Under the pieces are notes generated by a model. That model was not told where the DNA came from. It saw only the letters and a list, made by a program, of their open reading frames with translations, and did no database searches. Shown here in pieces: positions 1-35,242 of a stretch of 39,308 nt of DNA. The stretch is from positions 1 to 39,308 of the IMG/VR virus record IMGVR_UViG_2541047861_000010. One strand, written 5' to 3'. This stretch comes from a virus. Taxonomy: Duplodnaviria; Heunggongvirae; Uroviricota; Caudoviricetes. A program made the position numbers and the translations under genes. Numbering within the stretch: the first letter of the stretch is position 1; the number at the start of each line of letters is the position of its first letter.

Positions 1-2109
1 TTACACCATACTGTTAACCTGGCCGGGTAATTCGCTAGCTGGAATACGAAAGGTATACCAGGCATAACGACAGCGTTTCCACAGGCTGGAGAAATGGAGA
101 TGATAAAGGAAATCTGCAATAATTTCGTTATCTGGATATAAAGACTCGGCAAAATGTGTCCAGCGCGCACTGAGTTTCATGTTAAACAGTTTTTCATCTT
201 CTTTGTTACCATACAGGCGCGACAAAGTAATCATTGCTTCGAGCGTACCTTTATTCGCTTCTTCTTGTACCTGTTGGAGGTGCAAATGAGCAAGTGAGAG
301 TTCTTTCACCTCAAAGATATTAAGTAAAAAAAGCCCCCATGCTTTTTCATGTCCAGCTTCATGAGCCAGAAATAAATTGTCAAGGAGATTTTTTTCATAA
401 ATAGCCCGTGTTTCTTTAGAAATTTCTTGTTTATTTAGTGCCTGGTAGCAGATAGCAATGCTAAAATAAATATTTTGTAGATCTTGTTGATGTTCGCTAT
501 AACCATAATTTTTTACCAGTGGATAAGATACCGAGCTATGGAAATTTAGGTCATCTTGAAGTATTTTAAGTGCCCGTCGAAAATACTCCAAAGCTGTAGA
601 TGGTTCATAAGGTAATTTTGTATTGTCTTCCTTATCCAAATATTCAAGAGCAACTAAATTTAATGCGGCAGGAATATTTCTTTGCTTACCAATTGTCGCA
701 AGCGGAATGAAATAATCAGAAAGGTCAAACCAACTCAAATCTTTTATTGCCGACCGCCAATTATGATTGTATTTAATGTCACTAGCTTTTTCCAGCCAAG
801 CATCGCCCTGCCCTTCATCTTTTTCAAAACCCAAAATACCCTCTCGCTGGAAAAACCCCCTATAAATAACAGGTGTAGCATAAGTTGTATTCTGTGAATT
901 TTGGCAGATAAAATTATATATCCAGAATGAATCTGGATAATAACTTAATGCAAATTTTATCGCGTACGCAGTGTAATAATTATTGAGCTTCATGTCTTCC
1001 ATCACCGCTCGCTGTATACAGCACCACAACTTATCGTGATCGTTCTGCTTGTTATAGCAGGCAAGTAACCACTCTAGGGCATTATGGCGACATTCCTGAA
1101 ATTGTGCGTACTGAGCAATATTCTCTGCTAAGTCGATTGCATATTGTTGCTCCTCGGGCGCAATGTCCTCAATGCTGACATCTCGGTAATCATCCCACCA
1201 AAGTAAGAGATCCATATAGTCATGTTCTTCGGTAGATAAGTGCTTACAGGTTACTGAATCCAGCAATTCGGAAATTTCTTTATGCGACCCTCCCCAGCGT
1301 GGCATTCGAAATGGTATATATTCAACAAAAGGATAAAAAGTGTGAGGAAAAATAGTCAGACAAACAGAAAGCCAATATTTTTGCCCACCATCATCATCAT
1401 ACTCAGGAAGTATATTGGGGCGAGGCAAAACGGGGCATATTGCATGCTCAAACGAAAGTCCGGAATACGCCATCAACGCTTCCACTTCTTGCGGGGAGCG
1501 GCGGTGATAATTTTTCAGTGCGATCATTAATGGTATTCCTGCGACACTATCACCGTTAAGGTGTGCCGCCAGCCAGGCTGGCTGACCAAATACTTTTGAG
1601 TTGGTGCTGGTAAGTAATGCAGCCATCCATTGTCGTGGGTCACAATCAATTGCTTTAAGTGTAGCGATGACCATTTGTTCATTACATGCACCAGCACAAA
1701 GCCACATTGCATGTGTGGTATCATTTGCCCAGCCATAACTGCGATATAACCATGCACGGTGATTCCAGTATTGTGCTTCGGCAAGCCAGGCATGTGTAGA
1801 ATGAGGTCTTGCTTGCTGCCAGGTTTTAATGAGTCTTAAACCTTCTGTTCCGGCATCAACTAGCGTGTTCATATCATAAAAATAGTTGCACATTTGGGTC
1901 CAGGATAAAAAATAGCGCTTTTCAGCCTGACGAGAAGTGAAACTCTCCTGTAATACCTGGTTATAAATTTCATCTAGTTCCTGATAACGTTTTTCTTGTA
2001 ACATATAAGGAATATTTGCGATTTGCCATTTTCTCTCAAGAGTATTAAGTGGCATTTTTTGGTCACACATCTTTTGCATTGCACTGAGTAAACGAGCATC
2101 CTGTTCCAT
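1..2109 (-). CDS. Hypothetical cytoplasmic protein, 702 aa, Trp/Tyr-rich; last gene of an AT-rich three-gene operon
   Basis: Full ORF 1-2148; start placed at internal ATG 2107-2109 (MEQDARLL) because AAGGA sits 6 nt upstream and this avoids overlap with the upstream gene. Stop codon is at window bases 1-3. No hydrophobic N-terminus. No family recognised from memory. Confidence 0.6.
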   Translation of the reverse strand: MEQDARLLSAMQKMCDQKMPLNTLERKWQIANIPYMLQEKRYQELDEIYNQVLQESFTSRQAEKRYFLSWTQMCNYFYDMNTLVDAGTEGLRLIKTWQQARPHSTHAWLAEAQYWNHRAWLYRSYGWANDTTHAMWLCAGACNEQMVIATLKAIDCDPRQWMAALLTSTNSKVFGQPAWLAAHLNGDSVAGIPLMIALKNYHRRSPQEVEALMAYSGLSFEHAICPVLPRPNILPEYDDDGGQKYWLSVCLTIFPHTFYPFVEYIPFRMPRWGGSHKEISELLDSVTCKHLSTEEHDYMDLLLWWDDYRDVSIEDIAPEEQQYAIDLAENIAQYAQFQECRHNALEWLLACYNKQNDHDKLWCCIQRAVMEDMKLNNYYTAYAIKFALSYYPDSFWIYNFICQNSQNTTYATPVIYRGFFQREGILGFEKDEGQGDAWLEKASDIKYNHNWRSAIKDLSWFDLSDYFIPLATIGKQRNIPAALNLVALEYLDKEDNTKLPYEPSTALEYFRRALKILQDDLNFHSSVSYPLVKNYGYSEHQQDLQNIYFSIAICYQALNKQEISKETRAIYEKNLLDNLFLAHEAGHEKAWGLFLLNIFEVKELSLAHLHLQQVQEEANKGTLEAMITLSRLYGNKEDEKLFNMKLSARWTHFAESLYPDNEIIADFLYHLHFSSLWKRCRYAWYTFRIPASELPGQVNSMV

Positions 2110-2119
2110 AGATATCCTT

Positions 2120-2836
2120 TTAATTAGGTTCAAAAATTTTAAATTCATTCCACGGCAATTTTTTCCAGTTACTGGATGGATCTTTCAACCATGCAGTGAC
2201 TTCCTTTAAATCACGGTTCGCAGTGGCGACGGGGGTATCGTATATCATTAACCATTTTTGTCGGGCGCGAACATAAGCACTGGCATAATCTTCCCATGAA
2301 GCGAAACAATCTTGTGCTCTTTGAGCATTCAGTAATAACACTATCCAGGCCTGGTTTTCATCGCACCAGCCTAAACCGGCGATGCAACGAGTTAAAAAAG
2401 CAGTGCGCATACAGTCAAACGCCAGCCCATCCAGAACCTGGCCTTGTGCTGCCAGTTGTTCGTAAAAATCATGTGGAGAATTACCAAGCCCTGTAGCCCA
2501 GCGCTGTAATATAACGCCAATTTGTTGACGGAAATCTTCGTTGCTTTGGTAAGTTTCTGTTCCTAGCTCTTGTTTAACCTGTAGTGCAAGTTGTTGACGC
2601 TTATCATCAGTCAACTTTAAATCTAACGTGAAGCCATTTACTGACAGTCCATTACGACGAGCAACTATATCACCAATTGCTAATGCCCACTTACGTCTCT
2701 TTGTTGCTCGTCTTTTGTCCTTGATTAGATCCTTTTCTTTTTCTTTAGCAATAAAAGCATCGATTTGTGGTTTGTTTTTTTTGTATCTATAGATAAAAAT
2801 AAATATTGCGACCAGGAGAACAATGATAAGACTCAT
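2120..2836 (-). CDS. Hypothetical membrane-anchored protein, 238 aa, single N-terminal hydrophobic helix
   Basis: ORF with ATG start; N-terminus SLIIVLLVAIFIFIYRY followed by KKNK looks like a signal anchor. Start overlaps stop of upstream gene (TAATG). Possibly DUF1266-like, unverified. Confidence 0.6.
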   Translation of the reverse strand: MSLIIVLLVAIFIFIYRYKKNKPQIDAFIAKEKEKDLIKDKRRATKRRKWALAIGDIVARRNGLSVNGFTLDLKLTDDKRQQLALQVKQELGTETYQSNEDFRQQIGVILQRWATGLGNSPHDFYEQLAAQGQVLDGLAFDCMRTAFLTRCIAGLGWCDENQAWIVLLLNAQRAQDCFASWEDYASAYVRARQKWLMIYDTPVATANRDLKEVTAWLKDPSSNWKKLPWNEFKIFEPN

Positions 2837-4050
2837 TATTTTTCAACCTCTGACAGGGGTAAGTAATGAGATGTCTGTAATGTCAAACTCTCTATCTCAA
2901 AGGAAATGTTGCTGATATTTTGACCTGCAAATTGCGGATGCCACTCAGCGCCAGGGAATAACATTTCCGCAGAAGTAGCAACTATAGGGTCAATAGCATT
3001 AAGATAATGTAACTTATCAGGTGCGCTGTGTAACAGTAACCACTGCAACTCCACTGAAGGATTTGTAAAATGTTCTAATAAATGAAAGTTATTATGTAGT
3101 ACGCTTAGTAAAAAACTGGTTTCGTATACTTCCGTTACATATTTCCACCCCTGATATTCAGGTGTATTTTCATAAACAATACCCATACCTTCACAATCAC
3201 TATGTCGAACTGCTTGTGGTGATAATAGTTGCAAAAGAGACAAAACATCGTCCGCATATTTTTTAACTGGATGACGATTTTGCTTACCTTTTATTTGATC
3301 AATTTCAAGTGAATCACCAACAACATTGAGAGCAATAGTAACATGAGGAATATTATTATTATCACGCAAACTGAATAACCGTAATTTATGTTGCTCAATT
3401 TGATTTGCATAATACTCACCATAACCACCGGTAAGATTTTTTCGATCATCAAACTGGCCTACGCAATGTTGCATATGCCATGATTCATAAGCCATTTCAC
3501 GACGAAGGTTCGAATGACTGGCATCAAACTCAACAATTTTTCCGTCTGGCACATCAAGTATTGACTTTACAGTATTTTGTTCACTCGGCTGCCACCCTTT
3601 CTCGCGTCGTTGAAGCATCTTTTCATGCTCTTCTTCACGCATTCTGAACGCAACGTAGCAGGTTATGCGCTGTAGTTTTGATTCCAGACGGGTACCACAT
3701 TTCCTGGAAAGAAATTCCACCAACTCCCGTTCTTTGGTTAATATTTGTTGATGATCGGTTTCGATATAATAAAGTGTCGCAGTTGATACTGAGGCAGTAT
3801 TAAACTTCGATACCAGCCATTCCGGGATTACATCATCATTTTTATTAAACAGTGAATATTCTGCAAGCGAGTTAATTTGTTGCACCATTGGAAAGTCACT
3901 AATTAGCCATCGATAAAAATGGTTGAGTAACCATTTTTGGATGGTCTCATTATCCTGGCGAAACAGACTTCTTTGCAAAATTGCTGTTTTTACTTCCGGG
4001 GCATTAATTACATCCCTTGCATTATAATTCTGGTGAATATTTCCAGTCAT
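2836..4050 (-). CDS. Hypothetical protein, 404 aa; first gene of AT-rich three-gene operon
   Basis: ORF with ATG start at 4048-4050. Hand-counted GC of a 60-nt sample in this island is about 32 percent, versus about 60 percent in a prophage structural-gene sample (23161-23220). No confident domain assignment. Confidence 0.6.
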   Translation of the reverse strand: MTGNIHQNYNARDVINAPEVKTAILQRSLFRQDNETIQKWLLNHFYRWLISDFPMVQQINSLAEYSLFNKNDDVIPEWLVSKFNTASVSTATLYYIETDHQQILTKERELVEFLSRKCGTRLESKLQRITCYVAFRMREEEHEKMLQRREKGWQPSEQNTVKSILDVPDGKIVEFDASHSNLRREMAYESWHMQHCVGQFDDRKNLTGGYGEYYANQIEQHKLRLFSLRDNNNIPHVTIALNVVGDSLEIDQIKGKQNRHPVKKYADDVLSLLQLLSPQAVRHSDCEGMGIVYENTPEYQGWKYVTEVYETSFLLSVLHNNFHLLEHFTNPSVELQWLLLHSAPDKLHYLNAIDPIVATSAEMLFPGAEWHPQFAGQNISNISFEIESLTLQTSHYLPLSEVEK

Positions 4051-4537: not shown

Positions 4538-5899
4538 ATGTTTAAACCGGAACTCCTTTCCCCGGCGGGAACGCTGAAAAATATGCGTTACGCTTTCGCT
4601 TATGGCGCAGATGCTGTTTATGCGGGCCAGCCGCGTTACTCCCTGCGTGTACGCAACAACGAATTCAACCACGAAAATCTTCAGCTCGGCATCAATGAAG
4701 CCCACGCGCTGGGGAAAAAGTTTTATGTCGTGGTCAACATTGCACCGCACAACGCCAAGCTGAAAACCTTTATCCGTGACCTGAAACCGGTGGTGGAAAT
4801 GGGGCCGGATGCGCTGATTATGTCCGATCCAGGGCTGATTATGCTGGTGCGTGAACACTTCCCGGAAATGCCAATCCACCTCTCGGTACAGGCTAACGCC
4901 GTAAACTGGGCGACGGTGAAATTCTGGCAGCAAATGGGTCTGACCCGCGTGATCCTCTCTCGCGAACTGTCACTGGAAGAGATTGAAGAGATCCGCAATC
5001 AGGTGCCGGATATGGAGATCGAAATCTTCGTTCACGGCGCGCTGTGCATGGCCTACTCCGGTCGCTGCCTGCTCTCTGGCTATATCAACAAGCGCGACCC
5101 GAACCAGGGCACCTGCACCAACGCCTGCCGCTGGGAGTACAATGTCCAGGAAGGGAAAGAAGATGACGTCGGCAACATCGTACACAAGTACGAGCCGATT
5201 CCGGTGCAAAATGTTGAGCCGACGCTGGGTATCGGCGCGCCAACCGACAAAGTGTTTATGATCGAAGAAGCCCAGCGTCCGGGCGAGTATATGACCGCGT
5301 TTGAAGATGAGCACGGCACTTACATCATGAACTCGAAAGATCTGCGCGCCATCGCCCATGTTGAACGCCTGACCAAAATGGGCGTGCATTCGCTGAAAAT
5401 CGAAGGCCGTACCAAATCTTTCTACTATTGCGCACGCACCGCGCAGGTTTACCGTAAAGCTATCGATGACGCCGCTGCGGGCAAACCGTTCGATACCAGC
5501 CTGCTGGAAACGCTGGAAGGTCTGGCGCATCGTGGCTATACCGAAGGTTTCCTGCGTCGTCATACCCACGACGATTATCAGAACTACGAATACGGTTATT
5601 CGGTTTCTGACCGCCAGCAGTTTGTTGGTGAGTTTACCGGTGAGCGCAAGGGGGAGCTCGCGGCGGTAGCGGTGAAAAATAAATTCTCCGTTGGCGACAG
5701 CCTTGAGCTGATGACGCCGCAAGGCAACATTAACTTTACCCTTGAGCATATGGAAAACGCCAAAGGTGAAGCGATGCCGGTCGCACCAGGCGATGGTTAT
5801 ACTGTGTGGCTCCCGGTGCCGCAGGATCTTGAGCTAAATTACGCGCTGCTGATGCGTAATTTCTCCGGGGAAACCACGCGTAACCCCCACGGTAAGTGA
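4538..5899 (+). CDS. yegQ: Peptidase U32-family protein YegQ (tRNA hydroxylation protein TrhP)
   Basis: 453-aa translation beginning MFKPELLSPAGTLKNMRYAFAYGADAVYAGQPRYSLRVRNNEF matches my recollection of E. coli YegQ in length and sequence; followed by cyaR as in E. coli K-12. Confidence 0.9.
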   Translation: MFKPELLSPAGTLKNMRYAFAYGADAVYAGQPRYSLRVRNNEFNHENLQLGINEAHALGKKFYVVVNIAPHNAKLKTFIRDLKPVVEMGPDALIMSDPGLIMLVREHFPEMPIHLSVQANAVNWATVKFWQQMGLTRVILSRELSLEEIEEIRNQVPDMEIEIFVHGALCMAYSGRCLLSGYINKRDPNQGTCTNACRWEYNVQEGKEDDVGNIVHKYEPIPVQNVEPTLGIGAPTDKVFMIEEAQRPGEYMTAFEDEHGTYIMNSKDLRAIAHVERLTKMGVHSLKIEGRTKSFYYCARTAQVYRKAIDDAAAGKPFDTSLLETLEGLAHRGYTEGFLRRHTHDDYQNYEYGYSVSDRQQFVGEFTGERKGELAAVAVKNKFSVGDSLELMTPQGNINFTLEHMENAKGEAMPVAPGDGYTVWLPVPQDLELNYALLMRNFSGETTRNPHGK

Positions 5900-5934: not shown

Positions 5935-5983
5935 TAGAAACCGATCACATACAGCTGCATTTATTAAGGTTATCATCCGTTTC
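5935..5983 (+). promoter_or_regulatory. Putative cyaR promoter region (candidate -10 TATCAT at 5971-5976; possible CRP half-site GATCACA upstream)
   Basis: Position immediately upstream of the cyaR 5' end; cyaR is known to be CRP-dependent. Motif match is by eye and weak. Confidence 0.35.
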
Positions 5984-6070
5984 GCTGAAAAACATAACCC
6001 ATAAAATGCTAGCTGTACCAGGAACCACCTCCTTAGCCTGTGTAATCTCCCTTACACGGGCTTATTTTTT
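5984..6070 (+). ncRNA. cyaR: Small regulatory RNA CyaR (RyeE), Hfq-dependent, with intrinsic terminator
   Basis: Sequence GCTGAAAAACATAACCCATAAAATGCTAGCTGTACCAGGAACCACCTCCTTAGCCTGTGTAATCTCCCTTACACGGGCTTATTTTTT matches recalled E. coli cyaR; ends in a hairpin (CCCTTACACGGG) plus U-tract. Confidence 0.85.
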
Positions 6071-26059: not shown

Positions 26060-27832
26060 ATGACCATCACCACAGACACCACTCTTTTACACGACCCGCG
26101 TCGTCAGGCGGCGCTGCTGTACTGGCAGGGATTTTCCGTGCCGCAGATTGCCGCCATGTTGCAGATGAAACGCCCGACGGTGCAGAGCTGGAAACAGCGC
26201 GACGGCTGGGACAGTGTTGCCCCCATCAGCCGTGTCGAAATGAGTCTGGAAGCGCGGCTGACCCAGCTCATCATCAAACCGCAGAAAACCGGCGGTGACT
26301 TCAAGGAAATTGACCTGCTCGGACGCCAGATTGAACGACTGGCACGGGTAAACCGCTACAGCCAGACCGGCAACGAGGCAGACCTTAATCCGAACATCGC
26401 TAACCGCAACAAAGGCGGGCGTCGCAAACCGAAAAAGAATTTTTTCAGTGACGAGGCCATCGAAAAGCTGGAGCAGATTTTCTTTGAGCAGTCTTTCGAA
26501 TATCAGTTGCACTGGTATCGCGCCGGGCTTGAGCACCGCATCCGCGATATCCTGAAATCCCGCCAGATTGGCGCGACGTTTTATTTTTCCCGCGAGGCGC
26601 TGCTGCGCGCCCTGAAAACCGGTCATAACCAGATTTTTCTGTCGGCCAGTAAAACGCAGGCGTATGTGTTCCGCGAATACATCATCGCCTTTGCCCGGCT
26701 GGTTGACGTTGACCTGACCGGTGACCCGATTGTCCTGGGCAATAACGGCGCAAAACTGATTTTTCTCGGCACCAACTCCAACACCGCACAGAGCCATAAC
26801 GGCGACCTGTACGTCGATGAGATTTTCTGGATCCCGAATTTTCAGGTACTGCGTAAGGTGGCATCAGGTATGGCCTCACAGAGTCACCTGCGCTCGACCT
26901 ATTTCTCCACCCCGTCCACGCTGGCGCACGACGCCTACCCGTTCTGGTCGGGTGAACTGTTCAACCGGGGACGCGCCAGCGCCGCCGAACGCGTGGAAAT
27001 CGACGTCAGTCATAACGCCCTTGCCGGTGGGCTTCTCTGTGCGGACGGCCAGTGGCGGCAGATTGTCACCATTGAGGACGCGCTGAAAGGCGGCTGCACA
27101 TTGTTCGACATTGAGCAGCTTAAACGTGAAAACAGCGCCGACGATTTTAAAAACCTGTTCATGTGTGAATTTGTTGACGACAAGGCGTCGGTGTTCCCGT
27201 TCGAGGAGCTGCAACGCTGCATGGTCGACACGCTGGAAGAATGGGAAGACTATGCGCCGTTTGCCGCGAATCCGTTCGGCTCCCGCCCGGTATGGATTGG
27301 TTACGACCCGTCACACCGTGGCGACAGTGCCGGATGCGTGGTGCTGGCACCGCCGGTGGTGGCCGGTGGCAAATTCAGAATACTTGAGCGTCACCAGTGG
27401 AAAGGCATGGACTTTGCCACTCAGGCTGAATCCATCCGCAAACTCACCGAAAAATACAACGTCGAATACATCGGTATTGATGCCACCGGCCTCGGTGTCG
27501 GCGTGTTCCAGCTCGTGCGCTCGTTCTATCCCGCCGCGCGCGACATCCGCTACACGCCGGAAATGAAAACCGCAATGGTGCTCAAGGCAAAAGACGTTAT
27601 CCGCCGTGGCTGTCTGGAATATGACGTCAGCGCCACCGACATCACCAGCTCGTTTATGGCTATCCGCAAGACCATGACCAGCAGCGGACGCAGTGCCACC
27701 TATGAGGCCAGCCGCAGCGAGGAAGCCAGCCACGCCGACCTCGCCTGGGCGACCATGCACGCCCTGTTAAATGAGCCACTCACCGCCGGTATCAGCACCC
27801 CGCTGACATCCACCATTCTGGAGTTTTACTGA
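26060..27832 (+). CDS. P: Terminase large subunit (ATPase/endonuclease) gpP (590 aa)
   Basis: Start at MTITTDTTLLHDPRRQAALLYWQGF (GAGG 7 nt upstream) matches P2 P; stop overlaps Q start (TGATG). Confidence 0.9.
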   Translation: MTITTDTTLLHDPRRQAALLYWQGFSVPQIAAMLQMKRPTVQSWKQRDGWDSVAPISRVEMSLEARLTQLIIKPQKTGGDFKEIDLLGRQIERLARVNRYSQTGNEADLNPNIANRNKGGRRKPKKNFFSDEAIEKLEQIFFEQSFEYQLHWYRAGLEHRIRDILKSRQIGATFYFSREALLRALKTGHNQIFLSASKTQAYVFREYIIAFARLVDVDLTGDPIVLGNNGAKLIFLGTNSNTAQSHNGDLYVDEIFWIPNFQVLRKVASGMASQSHLRSTYFSTPSTLAHDAYPFWSGELFNRGRASAAERVEIDVSHNALAGGLLCADGQWRQIVTIEDALKGGCTLFDIEQLKRENSADDFKNLFMCEFVDDKASVFPFEELQRCMVDTLEEWEDYAPFAANPFGSRPVWIGYDPSHRGDSAGCVVLAPPVVAGGKFRILERHQWKGMDFATQAESIRKLTEKYNVEYIGIDATGLGVGVFQLVRSFYPAARDIRYTPEMKTAMVLKAKDVIRRGCLEYDVSATDITSSFMAIRKTMTSSGRSATYEASRSEEASHADLAWATMHALLNEPLTAGISTPLTSTILEFY

Positions 27833-28866
27833 TGAGCAAGAAAAAAGGGAAAACACCGCAACCTGCGGCAAAAAAAATGACCGCCAGCGCCCCGAAAATG
27901 GAGGCATTCACCTTTGGTGAGCCGGTGCCGGTACTCGACCGCCGTGACATTCTGGATTACGTCGAGTGCATCAGTAACGGCAGATGGTATGAGCCGCCGG
28001 TCAGCTTTACCGGTCTGGCAAAAAGCCTGCGTGCTGCCGTGCATCACAGCTCGCCGATTTACGTTAAACGCAATATTCTGGCCTCGACATTTATCCCGCA
28101 TCCGTGGCTTTCACAGCAGAATTTCAGCCGCTTTGTGCTGGACTTTCTGGTGTTCGGTAATGCGTTTCTGGAAAAGCGTTACAGCACCACCGGCAAGGTC
28201 ATCAGACTGGAAACCTCACCGGCAAAATATACCCGCCGTGGTGTGGAGGAGGATGTTTACTGGTGGGTGCCTTCCTTCAACGAGCCGACAGCCTTCGCAC
28301 CTGGCTCCGTGTTTCATCTGCTGGAGCCGGATATTAATCAGGAGCTGTACGGCCTGCCGGAATATCTCAGCGCCCTTAACTCTGCCTGGCTGAATGAGTC
28401 GGCCACGCTGTTCCGCCGCAAGTATTACGAAAACGGCGCACATGCCGGATACATCATGTATATCACCGACGCATTGCAGGACCGCGATTACATTGACTCA
28501 CTTCGCGAAAACATGGCCAGGTCGAAAGGCCGCAATAACTTTAATAATCTGTTTCTCTATGCACCGCAGGGAAAGCCAGACGGCATCAAAATTATCCCGC
28601 TCAGTGAAGTGGCGACAAAGGACGATTTTTTTAATATCAAAAAATCCAGCGCCGCTGACCTGCTGGACGCGCACCGCATCCCCTTTCAGTTGATGGGCGG
28701 CAAGCCGGAGAACGTCGGGTCGCTGGGCGATATTGAGAAAGTGGCAAAGGTCTTTGTCCGCAATGAGCTTATCCCGTTACAGGACAGGATTCGGGAAATA
28801 AACGGCTGGCTCGGTCAGGAGGTCATCCGCTTTAAAAACTACTCACTGGACACTGACAACGGCTGA
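27832..28866 (+). CDS. Q: Portal protein gpQ (344 aa)
   Basis: 344 aa; P2 Q length and position next to cos. Confidence 0.9.
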   Translation: MSKKKGKTPQPAAKKMTASAPKMEAFTFGEPVPVLDRRDILDYVECISNGRWYEPPVSFTGLAKSLRAAVHHSSPIYVKRNILASTFIPHPWLSQQNFSRFVLDFLVFGNAFLEKRYSTTGKVIRLETSPAKYTRRGVEEDVYWWVPSFNEPTAFAPGSVFHLLEPDINQELYGLPEYLSALNSAWLNESATLFRRKYYENGAHAGYIMYITDALQDRDYIDSLRENMARSKGRNNFNNLFLYAPQGKPDGIKIIPLSEVATKDDFFNIKKSSAADLLDAHRIPFQLMGGKPENVGSLGDIEKVAKVFVRNELIPLQDRIREINGWLGQEVIRFKNYSLDTDNG

Positions 28867-29095: not shown

Positions 29096-29128
29096 GGAAA
29101 AAGCCCTCCAGGACTGGAGGGCTTTTCT
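29096..29128. terminator. Bidirectional rho-independent terminator between cos and the cargo operon
   Basis: Hairpin GCCCTCC-AGGACT-GGAGGGC flanked by A5 upstream and TTTTCTATT downstream, so T-tracts on both strands; about 60 nt past the stop of the last cargo gene. Confidence 0.55.
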
Positions 29129-29182
29129 ATTAGAGTTCGTAAAATGCTCATGCAAATTCACGCGTTATGCTGCAAAAAACAA

Positions 29183-30250
29183 TCATTTCTTAGCTTTCAC
29201 AACCGGATGCGCGCGATCATGTCCACCGCCACGATGCTTAGAAAATATAACCTTTTCATTAGTAAAAGGTTTTTGGCCATAGACACTATCATAGTGGAAA
29301 AAGACGTTCGGAAGATGAGGCACACGGATGAATCCATACTTCACTCTAGTATCACCGATGACCCCAAAAACCCTTGTACTTACTGGGTAGCATAGTTCAC
29401 CACAACGCATCACTAATTCATCTGCTGTTGGGCGTTCAGAAGGTTCCAATTTTAAACAATCTTCTATAAGTTTAATTATTTCATTTGCCAATGGCGCATA
29501 CTGTCTATTTGAAAATATAAAGTCAGGGTAAGGAACATGCGTGCCAGAAAGTATTTTTGGTATAGCCATATAACCAATACCAAAAGGGTATTTTCCAGTA
29601 AGAATCCTGAACATCATCGCACCCAATGCCCAAATATCTGTAGGTTTCGAAACCTTACCTTGACTCTGTATGATTTCCGGTGCCATATATGGCAAAGCCC
29701 CGATAGCCGTTTGCGAAGAACTAATTGAATCTTGACCATTTCTTGCAGCCTCATCAATTTCATCTCCGGCCATCTTTGAAATGCCGAAATCCGTAATTTT
29801 TATCTCTGTAGCATTGATACCACCGCCTACCATTATATTTGAAGGTTTGAGGTCCCGGTGTATGACGTCAACATGATGCGAAGCAGACAGAGCTTTAGCT
29901 AAATTATGAAATATTTTAGCAGTTAAATATGGATCAACACTTGAATAAGTGTCTAAAATAGCCTTATCCAAGTCAACTCCATCAATAAATTCCTCCGTTA
30001 AAAACTCTCTACCCTCATCATCAATGAAGTAATCTAAGGTTTTAGCCACATTAGGATGATTAACCCTTGATGCTAATATTGCACTTCTATGAAACCTTTT
30101 TTCAGCAGATTTATTTTTGGGAGTTTTGAGAGCCACATGCCTCGAGAGAATATTATCCATTGCCAAATAAACTTTTTGCATACCGCCTTCACCAATCTCC
30201 CTCAATATTGTATATCTGCTAACTTGAATTCCTGGAGTCAGATTTATCAT
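29183..30250 (-). CDS. Hanks-type Ser/Thr protein kinase with C-terminal cold-shock-like (OB-fold) domain (355 aa)
   Basis: Kinase motifs present: G-loop GEGGMQKV, VALK lysine, HRDLKPSN, DFG, APE. C-terminal 60 aa (VFGVIGDTRVKYGFIRVPHLPNVFFHYDSVYG...EKVIF) aligns by eye to the CspA pattern. AT-rich; start overlaps upstream stop (ATGA). Confidence 0.85.
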   Translation of the reverse strand: MINLTPGIQVSRYTILREIGEGGMQKVYLAMDNILSRHVALKTPKNKSAEKRFHRSAILASRVNHPNVAKTLDYFIDDEGREFLTEEFIDGVDLDKAILDTYSSVDPYLTAKIFHNLAKALSASHHVDVIHRDLKPSNIMVGGGINATEIKITDFGISKMAGDEIDEAARNGQDSISSSQTAIGALPYMAPEIIQSQGKVSKPTDIWALGAMMFRILTGKYPFGIGYMAIPKILSGTHVPYPDFIFSNRQYAPLANEIIKLIEDCLKLEPSERPTADELVMRCGELCYPVSTRVFGVIGDTRVKYGFIRVPHLPNVFFHYDSVYGQKPFTNEKVIFSKHRGGGHDRAHPVVKAKK

Positions 30251-31311
30251 AACACCACCTCCGGATGGGAAAGGTCAAATGTAATGAAGACCCGCTCTTT
30301 TCTTGGCCGAGAAGTCTCTCCCAGAATAATAACACATGAATCAGGCAAAATATTATATTGCTTTGCAGCTATATTATTCACATACACCTCACCACTTAAA
30401 CTCGATATATAAAACTCTGAACCAGAATATTTCACCTCAATAGTCCCGACCCCTGAATTATTAAAAGCCGCAGATTTATTTGTTGAAGAAATGATGACGG
30501 GTGGAGTGTTATCAGAGATTAACAATGCTCTATGAGAGTTGTAGAGAACGAATTTTTTTAGAGTCTGACACACATCAGCCATATCAGGTCTCTCACAAGG
30601 ATTCGTATCTAAACATTGGAAAAGCAATTCTTTTACCTGAGTTGGTAACTGTATATTAGAATTATCAAAAGGATTAGACAATAATTTTTTGGGTAAAACT
30701 CTCATTTCCGGTGGTAGTGGGGTCTTAGCCAAAAACATGGCCGTTACAGCAAAAGCATATGTATCTATGGATTTTGTAAACGCTACTTGATGTAAAAATA
30801 ATTCAGGTGCAGCATATGTTGGGGTTCCTTTAAAACCTATTGTATTAGCTTCATCAACATTTCTAGATAGTCCGAAGTCATAAATCTTCACTACTCCCTC
30901 AGAATCAATTTTCATGTTCCCAGGCTTGATATCCCTATGAATAATATCATGAGAATGTATCTCAGAAATACCCGAAGATATTTGCCACAAAATTTTAATC
31001 AGATCTTCAGAATTTAATATGCGATCCTCTACTTCCAATAATGAAGGTCCGTCAACATACTCTTCGACTATAGCAATTCCTTTACCTTGATAATTAATAA
31101 CATCATAAAGCTCTACTACATGTTTTGATCTTAATTTCATCAATGCTGATAACTCATCCATCATTCGAGGAGAATCATCAGGATTACTTATGGACTTTAT
31201 AGCGACAAATCTTTCGAGGTGAGTATCCAAGCATTTGATCACGCAACCAAATCCTCCCGAAGCCTCTTCTTCAGTCCTCTTATATCTTGCAGGGAGAGTA
31301 AAATTAGTCAT
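30247..31311 (-). CDS. Hanks-type Ser/Thr protein kinase with C-terminal FHA-like domain (354 aa)
   Basis: Kinase motifs present: GGFGCV, VAIK, HRDIKPGN, DFG, APE. C-terminal segment (SSLSGEVYVNNIAAKQYNILPDSCVIILGE) resembles the FHA signature. RBS AAGGAG 7 nt upstream. Confidence 0.85.
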   Translation of the reverse strand: MTNFTLPARYKRTEEEASGGFGCVIKCLDTHLERFVAIKSISNPDDSPRMMDELSALMKLRSKHVVELYDVINYQGKGIAIVEEYVDGPSLLEVEDRILNSEDLIKILWQISSGISEIHSHDIIHRDIKPGNMKIDSEGVVKIYDFGLSRNVDEANTIGFKGTPTYAAPELFLHQVAFTKSIDTYAFAVTAMFLAKTPLPPEMRVLPKKLLSNPFDNSNIQLPTQVKELLFQCLDTNPCERPDMADVCQTLKKFVLYNSHRALLISDNTPPVIISSTNKSAAFNNSGVGTIEVKYSGSEFYISSLSGEVYVNNIAAKQYNILPDSCVIILGETSRPRKERVFITFDLSHPEVVL

Positions 31312-32470
31312 CTTTATCTCCTTTAGTGGAGTTTTTCTCAGAGAATGAAATATCTAACTGTGAAATATTATCTAACTTATCATTATTGTTAGCTTCGATA
31401 ACATTCCTTCCCTCATCACTCTTTATATTACTATTTTTTTTCTTTGTACGTGATTTCCTTTTCGATACATTTTTTTTGTTAGAAATTTCATTACTGCATT
31501 CTAACTCAGTAACTTTTCTATCAATAACATTTTCAACCGTAGCTGAGTTAGGTATATCTAACGGCGCAGGTTGCACGCTAATTACTTTCATCTCACCAAA
31601 AGGATCCCATAAATTAATTACATCCCCAGATGATACATCCAAAGCACTTAGGATGTTCGAAATCTCAACTACCGCAATCGACGCATTATCAAATCCACCA
31701 AACCAACTAGCTAGATCTATAACTCTTTTAGCGAACACTCCAGTATTATTGGAGTGAGCATATAATTTTCTCAAATTATTACTGTCAATGGTATGAGCAC
31801 CATCTGAAGTTAATGCAACCACCCCAGGTACGAGCCGAATATCGTGAAAATGTATCTCAAGAACACCATCAAGACCTATAAACTGTACTAACTCGCCACC
31901 TAACCTAGAATCAATAACACCTGAGTCACTACCAAGATGCTCATTATATTTCTTTGCCAATACAGCTAATGTATCATCCTCACTAATTTGTTTTATGTGT
32001 TCAGCATTAATGGAATATATGCGACTATCCCCGACATTTATTGCTGTAATGTTATCGGAGTCATCTACAGCTAAGGCAGATAACGTAGCCCCACCGTTCC
32101 CATTATATACTTTCAAAACCGATTCATTTGCTTTTAAAACGGCGATTTCAAGACATTGTCTAATTGGCAAGCCTGAGTGTTTAATTATCTCGGTAAAAAA
32201 AGATGATACGGTCAATGAAGCAGCATTCGCTCCCCCTTCCATCCCCCCCATACCATCTGCTAAAGCGATGACAATCATGTCCTTATTCTTACTAAAAGGA
32301 CGAAATTTTAATACAGCTACCCGGTCTTGGTTCTCTTTCCTAACTAAACCTATGTCTGTAGCAATAGCTGCAGGTAGCATAGATACTCTTCGTACAGATG
32401 AAGAGATATTTTTTCTATGCAGCCAAGCGTGTATCTGTTCATGAAGGATCTCGTAAGAGTCTCGACTCAC
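31304..32470 (-). CDS. PP2C-family Ser/Thr protein phosphatase with Lys-rich disordered C-terminal tail (388 aa)
   Basis: PP2C motifs ALADGMGG, VGDSR and TSDG read in the translation. GTG start with GAGGAGG 4 nt upstream; 3' end overlaps the downstream kinase start by 8 nt (ATGACTAA). Confidence 0.8.
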   Translation of the reverse strand: MSRDSYEILHEQIHAWLHRKNISSSVRRVSMLPAAIATDIGLVRKENQDRVAVLKFRPFSKNKDMIVIALADGMGGMEGGANAASLTVSSFFTEIIKHSGLPIRQCLEIAVLKANESVLKVYNGNGGATLSALAVDDSDNITAINVGDSRIYSINAEHIKQISEDDTLAVLAKKYNEHLGSDSGVIDSRLGGELVQFIGLDGVLEIHFHDIRLVPGVVALTSDGAHTIDSNNLRKLYAHSNNTGVFAKRVIDLASWFGGFDNASIAVVEISNILSALDVSSGDVINLWDPFGEMKVISVQPAPLDIPNSATVENVIDRKVTELECSNEISNKKNVSKRKSRTKKKNSNIKSDEGRNVIEANNNDKLDNISQLDISFSEKNSTKGDKDD

Positions 32471-32691
32471 AGCGCCTCCTCAAGCAAGCATTTCTCCGAA
32501 GCTATAGATTACAAAACACTAACGGCAATTCCTAGCATTACCCACTCAATTCCATTAGAAAACTGACGTAGTACAGTTAGTTGAATATTATTGTGATGAC
32601 GAATGCCAATCCTCTGATCACGCTGATTACAATATCACAACTCCCCGCTCTCCGATTCACAGTATTCAGTGATACAGAATATCACCTCGTA
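32471..32691 (-). promoter_or_regulatory. Probable promoter/leader region of the phosphatase-kinase-kinase cargo operon
   Basis: AT-rich 221-bp non-coding gap between the stop of gene A and the start of the phosphatase gene; no specific -10/-35 assigned. Confidence 0.3.
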
Positions 32692-34977
32692 CTATATACA
32701 TCGTTGATTTATTGGAAGCCCCGGCCACTCATCAACAACCGGATATGTAAATTTTTTCTCGCCATATGCCACCCTCGCACCTCGTGCTAGTACATCCAGC
32801 TCCCACCGTTCCGGCGTGATGCCATGCTGTGCGAGGTCAAACCGGATACGCGATATCTGGTCGCGCTGCGATTTAGTCAGCCTTGCCGATGGCGCAATTT
32901 CATTAGGTTTTAACGGGCCTCCGTTTCTCTGCTGACGATTTGGTGTTCTCAGGCCGTGTTTTAATGCGCCCCTGAGCGCCCTCACTACATCCGGGTCATT
33001 CCATTCGATAACACCTTCATCAACCAGATTAAGTACTGCTGCGGCGTGCTCAGAAGGTGTGGGAGCCGGTAACGAAGTATCACCACCAGTGAGCTTTCCA
33101 CAGTTATTGACAGGACTCCGAGGCGCGGCGATGCCGCTTTTTAAAGTCAAAGGCTCAACGACCGGAACTTTCGGCACAATGCGCCAGTCCGTCGTTCTGG
33201 TGATATGAATATGACGCGCGCCGAGATGCGGCGCGTAAATGCCGACCACCCTCTCGACCTCTTCCTCGTACTCGTTAACGTCATCCGACGGGCTACGGGC
33301 GACTCTGACAGTCTGACAATCGCGCGGGACATTTGCCCCACCCTGCGCGCTGATATACAACGCAAAATCACCACTGTCTGCGGCGGCGCGTGCAGCCTCG
33401 ACGCGCTCGTCAAACTCATCAGCAATGCTGACGCCGCGCGGCAATTTGCGTAGTTCACGGTAAGCCCCCATTGTCGGCAGACCAACCGTTTTAAATTGCG
33501 GGATGCGCCACGTTGACGCCCATGCGGTAACAGCCGCAGCAGTGTCTTTCAGCGGCCTGCCGGTATCGTTATCGAGCTGACCATCCAGTGCATAGCCGTC
33601 GATGTTTTTTGAGATGTATTTCGCGATATACCCCGCAGCACCGCCCCGGTTAAGGTGTTTTGCCTGAAAACGGTTTCGCGCGGCTCCTCTTTCATCGCCA
33701 TCCTCTTTGAGCGCATAGCGACGCATGATTTCGATAATCTGGTTACGCTGGCGCGGATTACAAAAAAGCATCATATGCCAGTGCGGCGTTCCGTCGTGGT
33801 GTGGCTCGACGACACGCAAACCGTAGACCTGTAAATCATTATCCTTGAATGCCGTGCGCATCAGGCTCCAGATACGGCAGAGATAACGCTGCGCATCCTT
33901 TGGATTAAATGCCTCATCGTTCCAGCCGTGATTTAGCTGGACGGTTTTACTTTCGCCTTTTCTGACCTGACGTGTCGGGTGATACTTTGACGGCGCGGTC
34001 AGCGTGATAAACATCCCCACATCACCCTCTGCTGCGGCGTAACGCTCAATACCGGCAATGGTGTTCATCAGCTCCATCCGGCGAATTTCAGGATTAGAAA
34101 TACTGCCCATCACCTTACTGATAAGGTCGATGCGCTCGCCGGTTTCCCTGTTTTCGAGATCACACGATTTAAGAAATTCCAGATTTGCCTGGCGGCGTGC
34201 ACGCACATCACGAATGGCATGTTTACTGGCATAAGGAGAACGGTCTTTATTGACCTCCCCGACAGCAATCAGTAACGCCTCATGCCAGCGCATACGCTGG
34301 CCTTTAAGCTGATGGGTCCACCACTCATCGTTAAACAGACGGGCAATGGCAGAATATGCCTGCCTCGTGGTCATCTGCCCTTTACGGTATTTTTTCCAGT
34401 AGAGCGGGGAAATATTGAAAGCACGTGCAGCACCAGCAACATGACCATAGAGGTGAGCCTGCGCCTCATCCGTAAACAGCGATTCTTTTTCGCCATGCGC
34501 ATCCCCCCAGGCATCGCAGAGTTCCTCATACATCATGAAAAGCTGCGATGAGATACGGGCGGCAAACTTTTTCAGCTCCTTGTCATTCATCCCCGGCAGA
34601 CGCGCATAATGGTCACGCTCTGCCAGAAACAGCAACGACGCGTCGGTGTTCATTTCATGGCGCTGATTCACACGCTCAATGCGCGGCCATAAACGACGCT
34701 GAAAAGTGGATGTGAGAAAATAAAACCCGTGCACCGGGCTTTTATTGCGCCGGATGTAGTCATAGCGTGACGTAAACAGCGAGCGCAAAAAGTAAGGCAG
34801 GCGGTTAATCGTGGATAAAACACCTTGCACCTGACGCATCTCGTCACGTGTAAGGGGTCTTTCGCGCCCGACAGCCTCGCGTGGCGCGTTCCATGCATAA
34901 GCACCGGTAAACGCCTTACCGGTGCCTGCGGCAAATGCTGACGGAGGGACAAAACGCCCGGAGGCTTTAACGGCCAT
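32692..34977 (-). CDS. A: Replication initiation endonuclease gpA (761 aa)
   Basis: Start set at MAVKASGRFVPPSAFAAGTGK to match the recalled P2 A N-terminus and length; sequence closely resembles P2 A. Confidence 0.9.
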   Translation of the reverse strand: MAVKASGRFVPPSAFAAGTGKAFTGAYAWNAPREAVGRERPLTRDEMRQVQGVLSTINRLPYFLRSLFTSRYDYIRRNKSPVHGFYFLTSTFQRRLWPRIERVNQRHEMNTDASLLFLAERDHYARLPGMNDKELKKFAARISSQLFMMYEELCDAWGDAHGEKESLFTDEAQAHLYGHVAGAARAFNISPLYWKKYRKGQMTTRQAYSAIARLFNDEWWTHQLKGQRMRWHEALLIAVGEVNKDRSPYASKHAIRDVRARRQANLEFLKSCDLENRETGERIDLISKVMGSISNPEIRRMELMNTIAGIERYAAAEGDVGMFITLTAPSKYHPTRQVRKGESKTVQLNHGWNDEAFNPKDAQRYLCRIWSLMRTAFKDNDLQVYGLRVVEPHHDGTPHWHMMLFCNPRQRNQIIEIMRRYALKEDGDERGAARNRFQAKHLNRGGAAGYIAKYISKNIDGYALDGQLDNDTGRPLKDTAAAVTAWASTWRIPQFKTVGLPTMGAYRELRKLPRGVSIADEFDERVEAARAAADSGDFALYISAQGGANVPRDCQTVRVARSPSDDVNEYEEEVERVVGIYAPHLGARHIHITRTTDWRIVPKVPVVEPLTLKSGIAAPRSPVNNCGKLTGGDTSLPAPTPSEHAAAVLNLVDEGVIEWNDPDVVRALRGALKHGLRTPNRQQRNGGPLKPNEIAPSARLTKSQRDQISRIRFDLAQHGITPERWELDVLARGARVAYGEKKFTYPVVDEWPGLPINQRCI

Positions 34978-35242
34978 ATGAGCCAAAAGCCTCTGAACAA
35001 CGCTTGCTGAGTTGCTCAACCTGCACGTTTAAATCAGCAAAAGACTTTGCGCTTCCGGTCAGAATATCGTGATGCATCAGGCCGGAAACGAGCTGGCTTA
35101 ATTTCGGGTAATAACCAACCACCGACAGCCATTCCTGACCGGCGTTTTTACCGCTTTCCGCTCTCTTTTTCTCGTGGAGAATAAACTGAAAGCTGTCACT
35201 GGTAACGACATAACGTTCGCCAATTTCAATACGAATACTCAT
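34967..35242 (-). CDS. P2 orf83-like early protein (91 aa)
   Basis: Position between orf82 and A; ATGA overlap with orf82 stop. Confidence 0.7.
   Translation of the reverse strand: MSIRIEIGERYVVTSDSFQFILHEKKRAESGKNAGQEWLSVVGYYPKLSQLVSGLMHHDILTGSAKSFADLNVQVEQLSKRCSEAFGSYGR

Follow-up and report, generated by a model that had tools for sequence, protein, structure and literature searches.

Introduction

KKP modules are kinase-toxin/phosphatase-antitoxin systems composed of a phosphatase (PfpC), a kinase with an FHA domain (PfkB) and a kinase with a cold-shock domain (CSD) carrying a GFI or GFA motif (PfkA) (Guo et al. 2024, Nat Commun, PMC11341870). PfkA and PfkB are toxic only together, pull each other down and have been modelled as a heterodimer; many essential host proteins are among their phosphorylation targets, and PfpC opposes the two kinases (PMC11341870). 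Joint toxicity, rescue by the phosphatase and phage defence were shown for the modules of Pf6, Shewanella, Vibrio, Salmonella and Escherichia coli 15EC039, and the latter four protect E. coli against T4 and T-odd phages (PMC11341870). More than 1200 KKP clusters have been reported, mostly in prophages, including P2, P4 and Mu-like elements (PMC11341870). Here we describe a three-gene phosphatase-kinase-kinase cassette in a 39,308-nt stretch of viral DNA (IMG/VR record IMGVR_UViG_2541047861_000010, positions 1 to 39,308; "the window" denotes this whole stretch), compare it with the KKP family, and examine how its genes are joined.

T4 Gp59 binds and partly inhibits the KKP phosphatase, and a Pf4 protein triggers PfpC degradation. 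In Pf6, the (pfkA+pfkB)/pfpC mRNA ratio shifts with growth mode and was proposed as a regulatory variable; in planktonic cells the last gene, pfkA, has the highest mRNA level of the three, and the degree of toxicity is a matter of PfkB dose (PMC11341870). In the published toxicity assays, separate plasmids were used to express the genes.

Results

Identification of the cassette as a KKP module

The cassette consists of three minus-strand open reading frames (ORFs), encoding a PP2C phosphatase, kinase 1 (K1) and kinase 2 (K2):

32470..31304, minus strand: PfpC-like PP2C Ser/Thr phosphatase, the predicted antitoxin component; 388 aa, GTG start; Pfam PF13672, with RefSeq in agreement
31311..30247, minus strand: kinase 1, a PfkB-like Hanks-type Ser/Thr kinase; 354 aa; Pfam Pkinase (PF00069), 1.7e-42
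30250..29183, minus strand: kinase 2, a PfkA-like Ser/Thr kinase; 355 aa; Pfam Pkinase (PF00069), 4.7e-45

The genes measure 1167 nt (phosphatase), 1065 nt (K1) and 1068 nt (K2), and their order, strand and lengths agree with the filter used by Guo et al., which looked for PP2C, Pkinase and Pkinase genes of 900-1300 bp each (PMC11341870). Both kinases carry HRD and DFG, the residues needed jointly for KKP toxicity. E. coli S40, whose cassette is 100% identical to window positions 29100-32700, has an entry among the KKP clusters of Supplementary Data 2 in Guo et al., which gives three consecutive gene ids and the label 'Prophage'. The identity is decisive because this identical cassette stands in the authors' own list: by sequence, the cassette is a KKP module, already published and with this copy catalogued. 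In the RefSeq/PGAP annotation of the S40 copy, the three coding sequence (CDS) boundaries match the ORF calls in the window. Near its junction, each kinase gene offers a single candidate start codon.

An earlier note on this DNA, made from the letters alone, had expected coupled translation where an antagonist must be made together with a potentially toxic partner. That expectation was apt for a kinase-toxin/phosphatase-antitoxin system (PMC11341870), and the sequence features on which it was built, namely a GTG start behind GAGGAGG and overlaps of 8 and 4 nt, are all present.

The cassette lies between the gene for the gpA replication endonuclease (35019..32692) and the portal gene (27832..28866), a gap in which only these three ORFs are found. 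This gpA-portal (gpA-gpQ) slot is a P2 defence hotspot, occupied by old and tin in reference P2 (Rousset et al. 2022, PMC9122126), and Phage_GPA and Phage_portal are named among the genes flanking KKP clusters in the legend of Fig. 3g of PMC11341870. The GC content of the cassette is 0.36-0.39, versus ~0.55 in its flanks. The cassette was found in 18 of 5426 complete E. coli genomes as two sequence types (>=99.9% and ~71%), both in the same P2 slot. A search of the phage GenBank collection returned no near-identical cassette, and three distant phosphatase matches by tblastn.

The kinase-kinase junction across the family

The K2 gene begins within the last codons of K1, and its ribosome binding site is embedded in the K1 coding sequence:

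30250..30247, minus strand: 4-nt K1/K2 overlap, ATGA, formed by the K2 ATG and the K1 TGA; the junction conserved family-wide, with RefSeq in agreement
30262..30257, minus strand: K2 Shine-Dalgarno sequence GGAGGT, 6 nt upstream of the ATG, lying within the Pro-Glu-Val codons CCG GAG GTG of the K1 peptide SHPEVVL

Junctions were compared at loci drawn from genomes, viral contigs and assemblies, with genes called by homology or taken from the collections' own calls; when genome contigs were scanned with the phosphatase alignment, generic PP2C proteins dominated the output, and only L001-L015 from it were useful. The 27 diverged loci with a kinase-kinase junction span enterobacteria, Pseudomonas, Vibrio, Methylobacter, Alpha-, Beta- and Gammaproteobacteria, a Synechococcus (cyanobacterium) and a Pirellulales metagenome-assembled genome (MAG), with K1 identities to the window protein of 24-100%; the closest Pseudomonas locus in the survey is from Pseudomonas zeae. 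Phosphatase and two kinases form a fixed triplet at every locus that allowed the downstream genes to be called, and thus at each of these 27.

K1 and K2 were found to share an NTGA overlap of -4 in 26/27 loci. The K1 stop is always TGA, and the K2 start within the overlap is mostly ATG, with GTG in L003, L008 and L105 and TTG in L009. The final two K1 codons vary in amino acid, yet their last base always yields ATG, GTG or TTG. Upstream of the overlap, a Shine-Dalgarno sequence of the form GGAGGT or GAGGT is kept family-wide at a distance of 6 nt, encoded by the K1 C-terminal peptide F-D-x-S-H/N-P-E-V-x-x-stop. Its Glu codon is GAG in 23/24 distinct loci, versus ~45% GAG elsewhere in the same genes, a bias that is indicative rather than rigorous because the test counts related loci as independent. 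The third positions of the neighbouring Pro and Val codons vary freely. The only GAA codon and the only junction other than -4, a TGATG (-1) arrangement, occur together at L015 6900-6945 (a Chromatiaceae MAG), which also has the most diverged K1 (24% identity).

The geometry is of a well-described type. Among 14 tested pairs of archaeal and bacterial genes with -4 overlaps, 5 of which were E. coli pairs, strict coupling was seen in 13, and genes whose products are subunits of heteromeric complexes are enriched for -4 and -1 overlaps (Huber et al. 2019, PMC6728339; Huber et al. 2023, PMC10666635). The geometry of the kinase junction thus matches the published interdependence of PfkA and PfkB.

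The phosphatase-kinase junction and the frequency of overlaps

At the other junction, the phosphatase and K1 genes overlap as follows:

31311..31304, minus strand: 8-nt PP2C/K1 overlap, ATGACTAA, containing the K1 ATG and the PP2C TAA; seen in the sequence and in RefSeq
31323..31318, minus strand: K1 Shine-Dalgarno sequence AAGGAG, 6 nt upstream of the ATG, inside the 3' end of the phosphatase gene

Among 25 related loci, the distance from PP2C to K1 takes 15 different values, from -17 to +13 nt; this overlap is not conserved in form or length across the family. Since the distance drifts in the same loci in which the kinase junction is kept, the junctions of the operon are not simply frozen by descent. 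Conservation of K1 to K2, and not of PP2C to K1, indicates that the conserved coupling most plausibly serves joint production of both kinases.

Overlaps are common in the genome that carries the cassette. In RefSeq calls for the same prophage, overlaps are present in 18/38 adjacent same-strand CDS pairs, the distance being -4 in five, -8 in four and -1 in five; GTG starts occur in 2/44 CDSs. Across prokaryotes, an overlap is present in ~15% of co-directional pairs, with -4 and -1 far more frequent than other distances (PMC6728339, PMC10666635). The overlaps of the cassette as such are therefore ordinary for a compact phage operon. Overlap beyond chance is not seen within the single genome; it is seen family-wide, and there at the K1 to K2 junction only.

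These frequencies bear on the reading that the overlaps are neutral by-products of compact architecture, with each gene translated independently and the kinase junction explained by constraint on the K1 peptide together with a stop/start that is hard to change. Such a reading agrees with the overlap counts in the prophage and across prokaryotes, with conservation of FD-x-S-H/N-P-E-V at the protein level, and with strong Shine-Dalgarno sequences at all three genes: folding of 91-nt windows at the three starts gave z = +0.82, -0.87 and +1.04, none of them significant, and so no RNA structure masking the starts was detected. It fits poorly with a PP2C to K1 junction that has changed many times over the same divergence, with variable final K1 codons that nevertheless always supply a start codon before an invariant TGA, and with the GAG bias, whose sole exception is also the sole exception to the -4 distance. 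We consider this neutral reading quite unlikely.

The coupling proposed in the earlier note would make the PP2C to K1 to K2 overlaps an obligatory relay that fixes the antitoxin:toxin ratio, no kinase being made without prior translation of the phosphatase. Part of this stands: the cassette is compact and antagonist-first, with -8 and -4 overlaps, one of them in a geometry of proven coupling type; a single terminator follows it and no conserved internal promoter was found (see below); it belongs to a toxin-antitoxin family; and none of the 25 PP2C to K1 junctions exceeds +13 nt, which places them inside or close to the range of reinitiation (PMC6728339, PMC10666635). A fixed phosphatase:kinase ratio is a weak claim, supported only in part. 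The PP2C to K1 junction is variable in form and length, about half of the same-strand neighbours in the prophage overlap anyway, and both kinases have independent Shine-Dalgarno sequences, that of K1 being strong and unmasked. In the published KKP systems, moreover, the kinase:phosphatase mRNA ratio varies in Pf6 and is itself the proposed control variable, and PfpC is regulated after translation, by inhibition and proteolysis. An obligatory relay is thus unlikely in our view.

Because K1 has its own strong, unmasked Shine-Dalgarno sequence, the PP2C/K1 overlap is not needed for ribosomes to reach K1. The 8-nt overlap may also allow reinitiation, and the K1 start, 8 nt before the phosphatase stop, would be reachable by terminating ribosomes in addition to those recruited directly; this junction is probably no more than tight operon packing.

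Start and features of the phosphatase

The phosphatase scores 26.7 bits against PF13672 (PP2C_2; cut-off 24). Its catalytic motifs DGMGG, GDSR, DG (SDG) and DN are invariant in the family alignment, and the catalytic core occupies ~residues 35-265, with the C-terminal third forming a Lys/Asn-rich low-complexity tail. Translation begins at a GTG codon behind the following element:

32481..32475, minus strand: phosphatase Shine-Dalgarno sequence GAGGAGG, 4 nt before the GTG

Four codons upstream of this start there is an in-frame TGA. In an alignment of 28 homologues, down to 33% identity, residues 1-30 are conserved, with W16 and R19 invariant and R27 and P33 nearly so; this conservation across the phosphatase family shows the GTG to be the true start. 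The next in-frame ATG, at codon 31, was rejected as an alternative, as a start there would delete the conserved residues 1-30 and has no Shine-Dalgarno sequence. The combination of GTG with an AGGAGG-type Shine-Dalgarno sequence recurs in the enterobacterial relatives L082, L083/L099, L084 and L086. A Salmonella copy (L103) also starts with GTG, behind a weaker GGGGGT-type sequence, and the phosphatases of distant family members mostly start with ATG.

The tail (residues ~290-388, window 31304-31600) is rich in Lys, Asn and Ser and ends in a conserved ...QLDIxF... motif (alignment A1). A disordered C-terminal region of PfpC can be clipped without loss of antitoxin function (PMC12328805), and the tail seen here may be its counterpart.

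Several homologues depart from the usual arrangement. At L087 5001-6142 (IMGVR_UViG_2893839411_000003) the phosphatase is split over two open frames, indicating a frameshift or pseudogene, with both kinase genes intact; this would be surprising for an essential antitoxin, and could reflect a sequencing error or an inactivated or compensated module. Four phosphatase homologues of 36-39% identity (L001 and L002 from Shewanella, L088 and L089) have no detected same-strand downstream kinase ORF of at least 150 aa; L088 and L089 stop at a contig edge, and L001 and L002 may be PfpC-like phosphatases in another context. Opposite the phosphatase gene in the window, two plus-strand antisense ORFs (31326-31757, 143 aa; 31995-32444, 149 aa) are unsupported and most likely arise only because the complementary strand is AT-rich and contains few stops.

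Transcription signals

Two elements delimit the putative transcription unit:

32535..32506, minus strand: conserved non-coding block CTAGGAATTGCCGTTAGTGTTTTGTAATCT, 36-65 nt upstream of the phosphatase GTG; candidate promoter/operator
29122..29098, minus strand: predicted intrinsic terminator GCCCTCCAGTCCTGGAGGGCTTTTT, ~60 nt after the K2 stop; operon 3' end

The core of the upstream block, ACTAGGnATT...TTTTGTAAnCT, is kept in cassettes at 62-89% identity (L082, L083/L099, L084). A scan with the sigma-70 consensus upstream of the phosphatase, including this block, gave no match at threshold. At the other end, the terminator hairpin has the form GCCCTCCAG-TC-CTGGAGGGC, reads GCCCTCCAGTCCTGGAGGGC-TTTTT on the minus strand, and has an A-run on one side and a T-run on the other. 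It would thus be bidirectional, with the KKP operon ending on one side of it and the convergent region of the portal gene on the other.

The earlier note had set internal promoters against its coupled scheme, and these would make the kinases largely independent of the phosphatase in transcription. Sigma-70-like matches do occur, the best two on the minus strand lying at 31774..31745 in the phosphatase gene (10/12) and 30486..30457 in K1 (9/12), and the high planktonic mRNA level of Pf6 pfkA, the last gene, would agree with such an arrangement. The number of promoter-like matches is, however, that expected by chance (11 versus 12.0 +/- 3.4 in shuffled sequence), and neither of the two best candidates is conserved in cassettes at 62-71% identity. 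Both were rejected. The scan lends internal promoters no support, and we regard kinase expression driven largely from them as very improbable.

Domain architecture of the kinases

K1 contains the kinase motifs VAIK (36-39), HRD (125-127), DFG (145-147) and APE (168-170), and K2 the motifs GGM (22-24), VALK (39-42), HRD (131-133), DFG (154-156) and APE (190-192). Additional domains were assigned to both C-termini:

30528..30271, minus strand: putative FHA-like beta-sandwich domain of K1, residues ~262-347; domain model of pLDDT 91.6 (AlphaFold2)
29344..29195, minus strand: C-terminal cold-shock (CSD/OB) domain of K2, with GFI at residues 306-308

In the full-length AlphaFold2 model of K1 (pLDDT, the predicted local distance difference test, 90.5), the C-terminal domain is all-beta. 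A Foldseek search with the full-length model returned kinase domains only, and the C-terminal domain was therefore modelled separately. Searched against the PDB, the domain model gave top matches that were nearly all FHA domains, among them Pml1, Rv0020c, Rad53 FHA1, Ki67, RNF8 and EmbR, with template-modelling (TM) scores of 0.5-0.64 and probabilities up to 1.0, at weak E-values of 5e-3 to 0.6. Pfam FHA (PF00498) gave no match in the window protein, its C-terminal fragment or 21 family members, and a sequence profile gave no match to the PDB. Because the E-values are weak, although the top structure matches are FHA domains, we call the modelled domain FHA-like and go no further.

For K2, PF00313 scores 17.8 bits in the window protein alone, under the cut-off of 27. 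The C-termini of 15/21 K2 family members match PF00313, the best at 8.4e-9, and a profile of the K2 family matches Unr CSD and CspB structures at 2.7e-6 to 1e-4. The family-level matches indicate that K2 is a PfkA-type kinase with a C-terminal cold-shock domain carrying GFI.

The 2023 PADLOC library, which has no KKP model, assigned the kinases to the generic kinase models mad6, PD-T4-6 and MkoA, with matches to PD-T4-6 of 1e-50 for K2 and 1e-32 for K1. The phosphatase matched no model in that library, and no TerY-P match was returned.

Chromosomal surroundings and other copies

Outside the prophage, the window contains a CyaR/RyeE small RNA gene (Rfam RF00112, 100.7 bits; 5982-6067, plus strand), with yegQ (4538-5899) on one side and the prophage's ogr end on the other, which marks the chromosomal neighbourhood of integration of this P2-like prophage. 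Beyond yegQ, the minus strand of window 1-4050 carries ORFs for a DUF4034 protein (715 aa), a DUF1266 protein (238 aa) and a protein with a weak PcfJ-like match (404 aa). The corresponding place in strain S40 holds a parDE toxin-antitoxin pair, yegP and baeSR. Since these gene contents are unlike, the chromosomal flank appears to differ between carriers of the same KKP cassette.

E. coli NDM2 (NZ_CP083886.1, NZ_CP083887.1; H10/H11, H28/H29) carries the cassette both on the chromosome and on a 43,140-bp record labelled plasmid, which is probably the excised circular P2-like prophage. Compared with the window cassette, both NDM2 copies are shorter by 1 nt and have an extra 'hypothetical protein' annotation, suggesting a frameshifted gene.

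Discussion

Taken as a whole, the locus is probably best explained as a KKP operon in the P2 hotspot with a selected K1 to K2 coupling. By homology, the two kinases would act jointly as a toxin, phosphorylating many host proteins and arresting growth, and the PP2C phosphatase would be the antitoxin that restrains them for as long as it is not inhibited or destabilised by a protein of an infecting phage, the outcome being defence of the abortive-infection type. The three genes would be carried on one mRNA ending at the terminator 29122..29098. In the proposed pathway, the phosphatase initiates de novo at its GTG behind the strong Shine-Dalgarno sequence, and K2 is made by ribosomes that terminate at the K1 TGA and restart at the overlapping ATG, aided by the embedded Shine-Dalgarno sequence. 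Through selected termination-reinitiation at this junction, the two kinases, which depend on each other, would be synthesised next to one another and at matched levels. The phosphatase:kinase balance would be set mainly by other means, namely the strength of start codons and Shine-Dalgarno sequences, mRNA levels, and inhibition or degradation of the proteins. From the observed anatomy, family membership, junction conservation and synonymous bias, we infer that this coupling operates and why it has been kept.

Several points weigh against this explanation. Coupling in the cassette is deduced from geometry; ribosomes could initiate independently at both kinase genes, because each has a strong Shine-Dalgarno sequence of its own and no significant masking structure; and the ...SHPEV... 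peptide may owe its conservation to a role in the protein. Related loci entered the GAG count as independent observations. In Pf6, pfkA gives the most abundant transcript and toxicity needs relatively high PfkB, unlike a simple 1:1 coupled output. The operon promoter was not located by the consensus scan, and the FHA assignment of K1 has weak structural E-values and zero sequence signal.

We also put forward a wider proposal, tentatively and with slightly more doubt than belief. Family-wide, the NTGA junction, whose Shine-Dalgarno sequence is encoded by conserved final codons of the K1 FHA-like domain, would have been selected so that PfkB and PfkA are synthesised in matched amounts and assembled co-translationally, and the plastic phosphatase-kinase junction, together with the clade-specific GTG start and strong Shine-Dalgarno sequence, would be the tuning knob for the firing threshold.

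For annotators, the finding tells what the cassette is: a published tripartite kinase/phosphatase toxin-antitoxin defence system in a classic P2 hotspot. The family-wide K1 to K2 overlap with an embedded Shine-Dalgarno sequence is a minor descriptive novelty within a known kind of system; it is an addition because Guo et al. (PMC11341870) are silent on gene overlaps and stoichiometry. The conserved overlap fits the reported mutual dependence of the two kinases, and where KKP genes are re-cloned separately, the uncoupled kinases may shift in ratio and behaviour. No new question of broad interest is raised.

Comparison with known systems

In type II toxin-antitoxin operons the antitoxin gene comes first, and stop and start often overlap or abut. 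The cassette resembles them in placing the antagonist first within one operon and in neutralising the toxin by a co-expressed protein. It differs in that KKP neutralises by dephosphorylation and not by stoichiometric binding, in that the toxin is split over two genes, and in that the antitoxin-toxin junction is not conserved in the KKP family.

The TerY-P triad consists of the vWA protein TerY, a PP2C phosphatase and a Ser/Thr kinase. It shares with the cassette a PP2C gene adjoining a Ser/Thr kinase gene in a defence context. It was rejected as an assignment: the gpA-portal interval contains no vWA/TerY gene, the kinases are two and not one, and PADLOC gave no match to it.

PD-T4-6 and the Stk2 kinase of staphylococci (Depardieu et al. 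2016) likewise place a Hanks-type kinase domain in phage defence. They are stand-alone kinases without a paired second kinase or cognate PP2C, and single-kinase defence of this type was rejected for the cassette, which keeps two kinases and a phosphatase as a fixed triplet.

As an instance of termination-reinitiation coupling (PMC6728339, PMC10666635), the kinase junction has the typical features of a co-directional -4 pair, with ATGA and a Shine-Dalgarno sequence inside the upstream gene, and the homologues of K1 and K2 are reported to form a heteromer, a class enriched for such overlaps. It differs from the described pairs in that coupling here is predicted, and the -8 overlap of PP2C and K1 belongs to a rarer class than -4 or -1.

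The closest known systems are the KKP modules of Pseudomonas aeruginosa Pf6 (PfpC-PfkB-PfkA) and of E. coli 15EC039 (KKP_EC039, whose tested proteins are MCM8848563-65), which share with the cassette gene order, gene sizes, carriage as prophage cargo and a domain plan of PP2C, a kinase whose added domain is here putatively FHA-like, and a kinase with a CSD carrying GFI. Relative to Pf6, the host element here is a P2-like myovirus and not a filamentous Pf prophage, and the putative FHA-like domain is too diverged for Pfam. Silencing of the prophage through MvaU is specific to Pseudomonas and would not be expected here.

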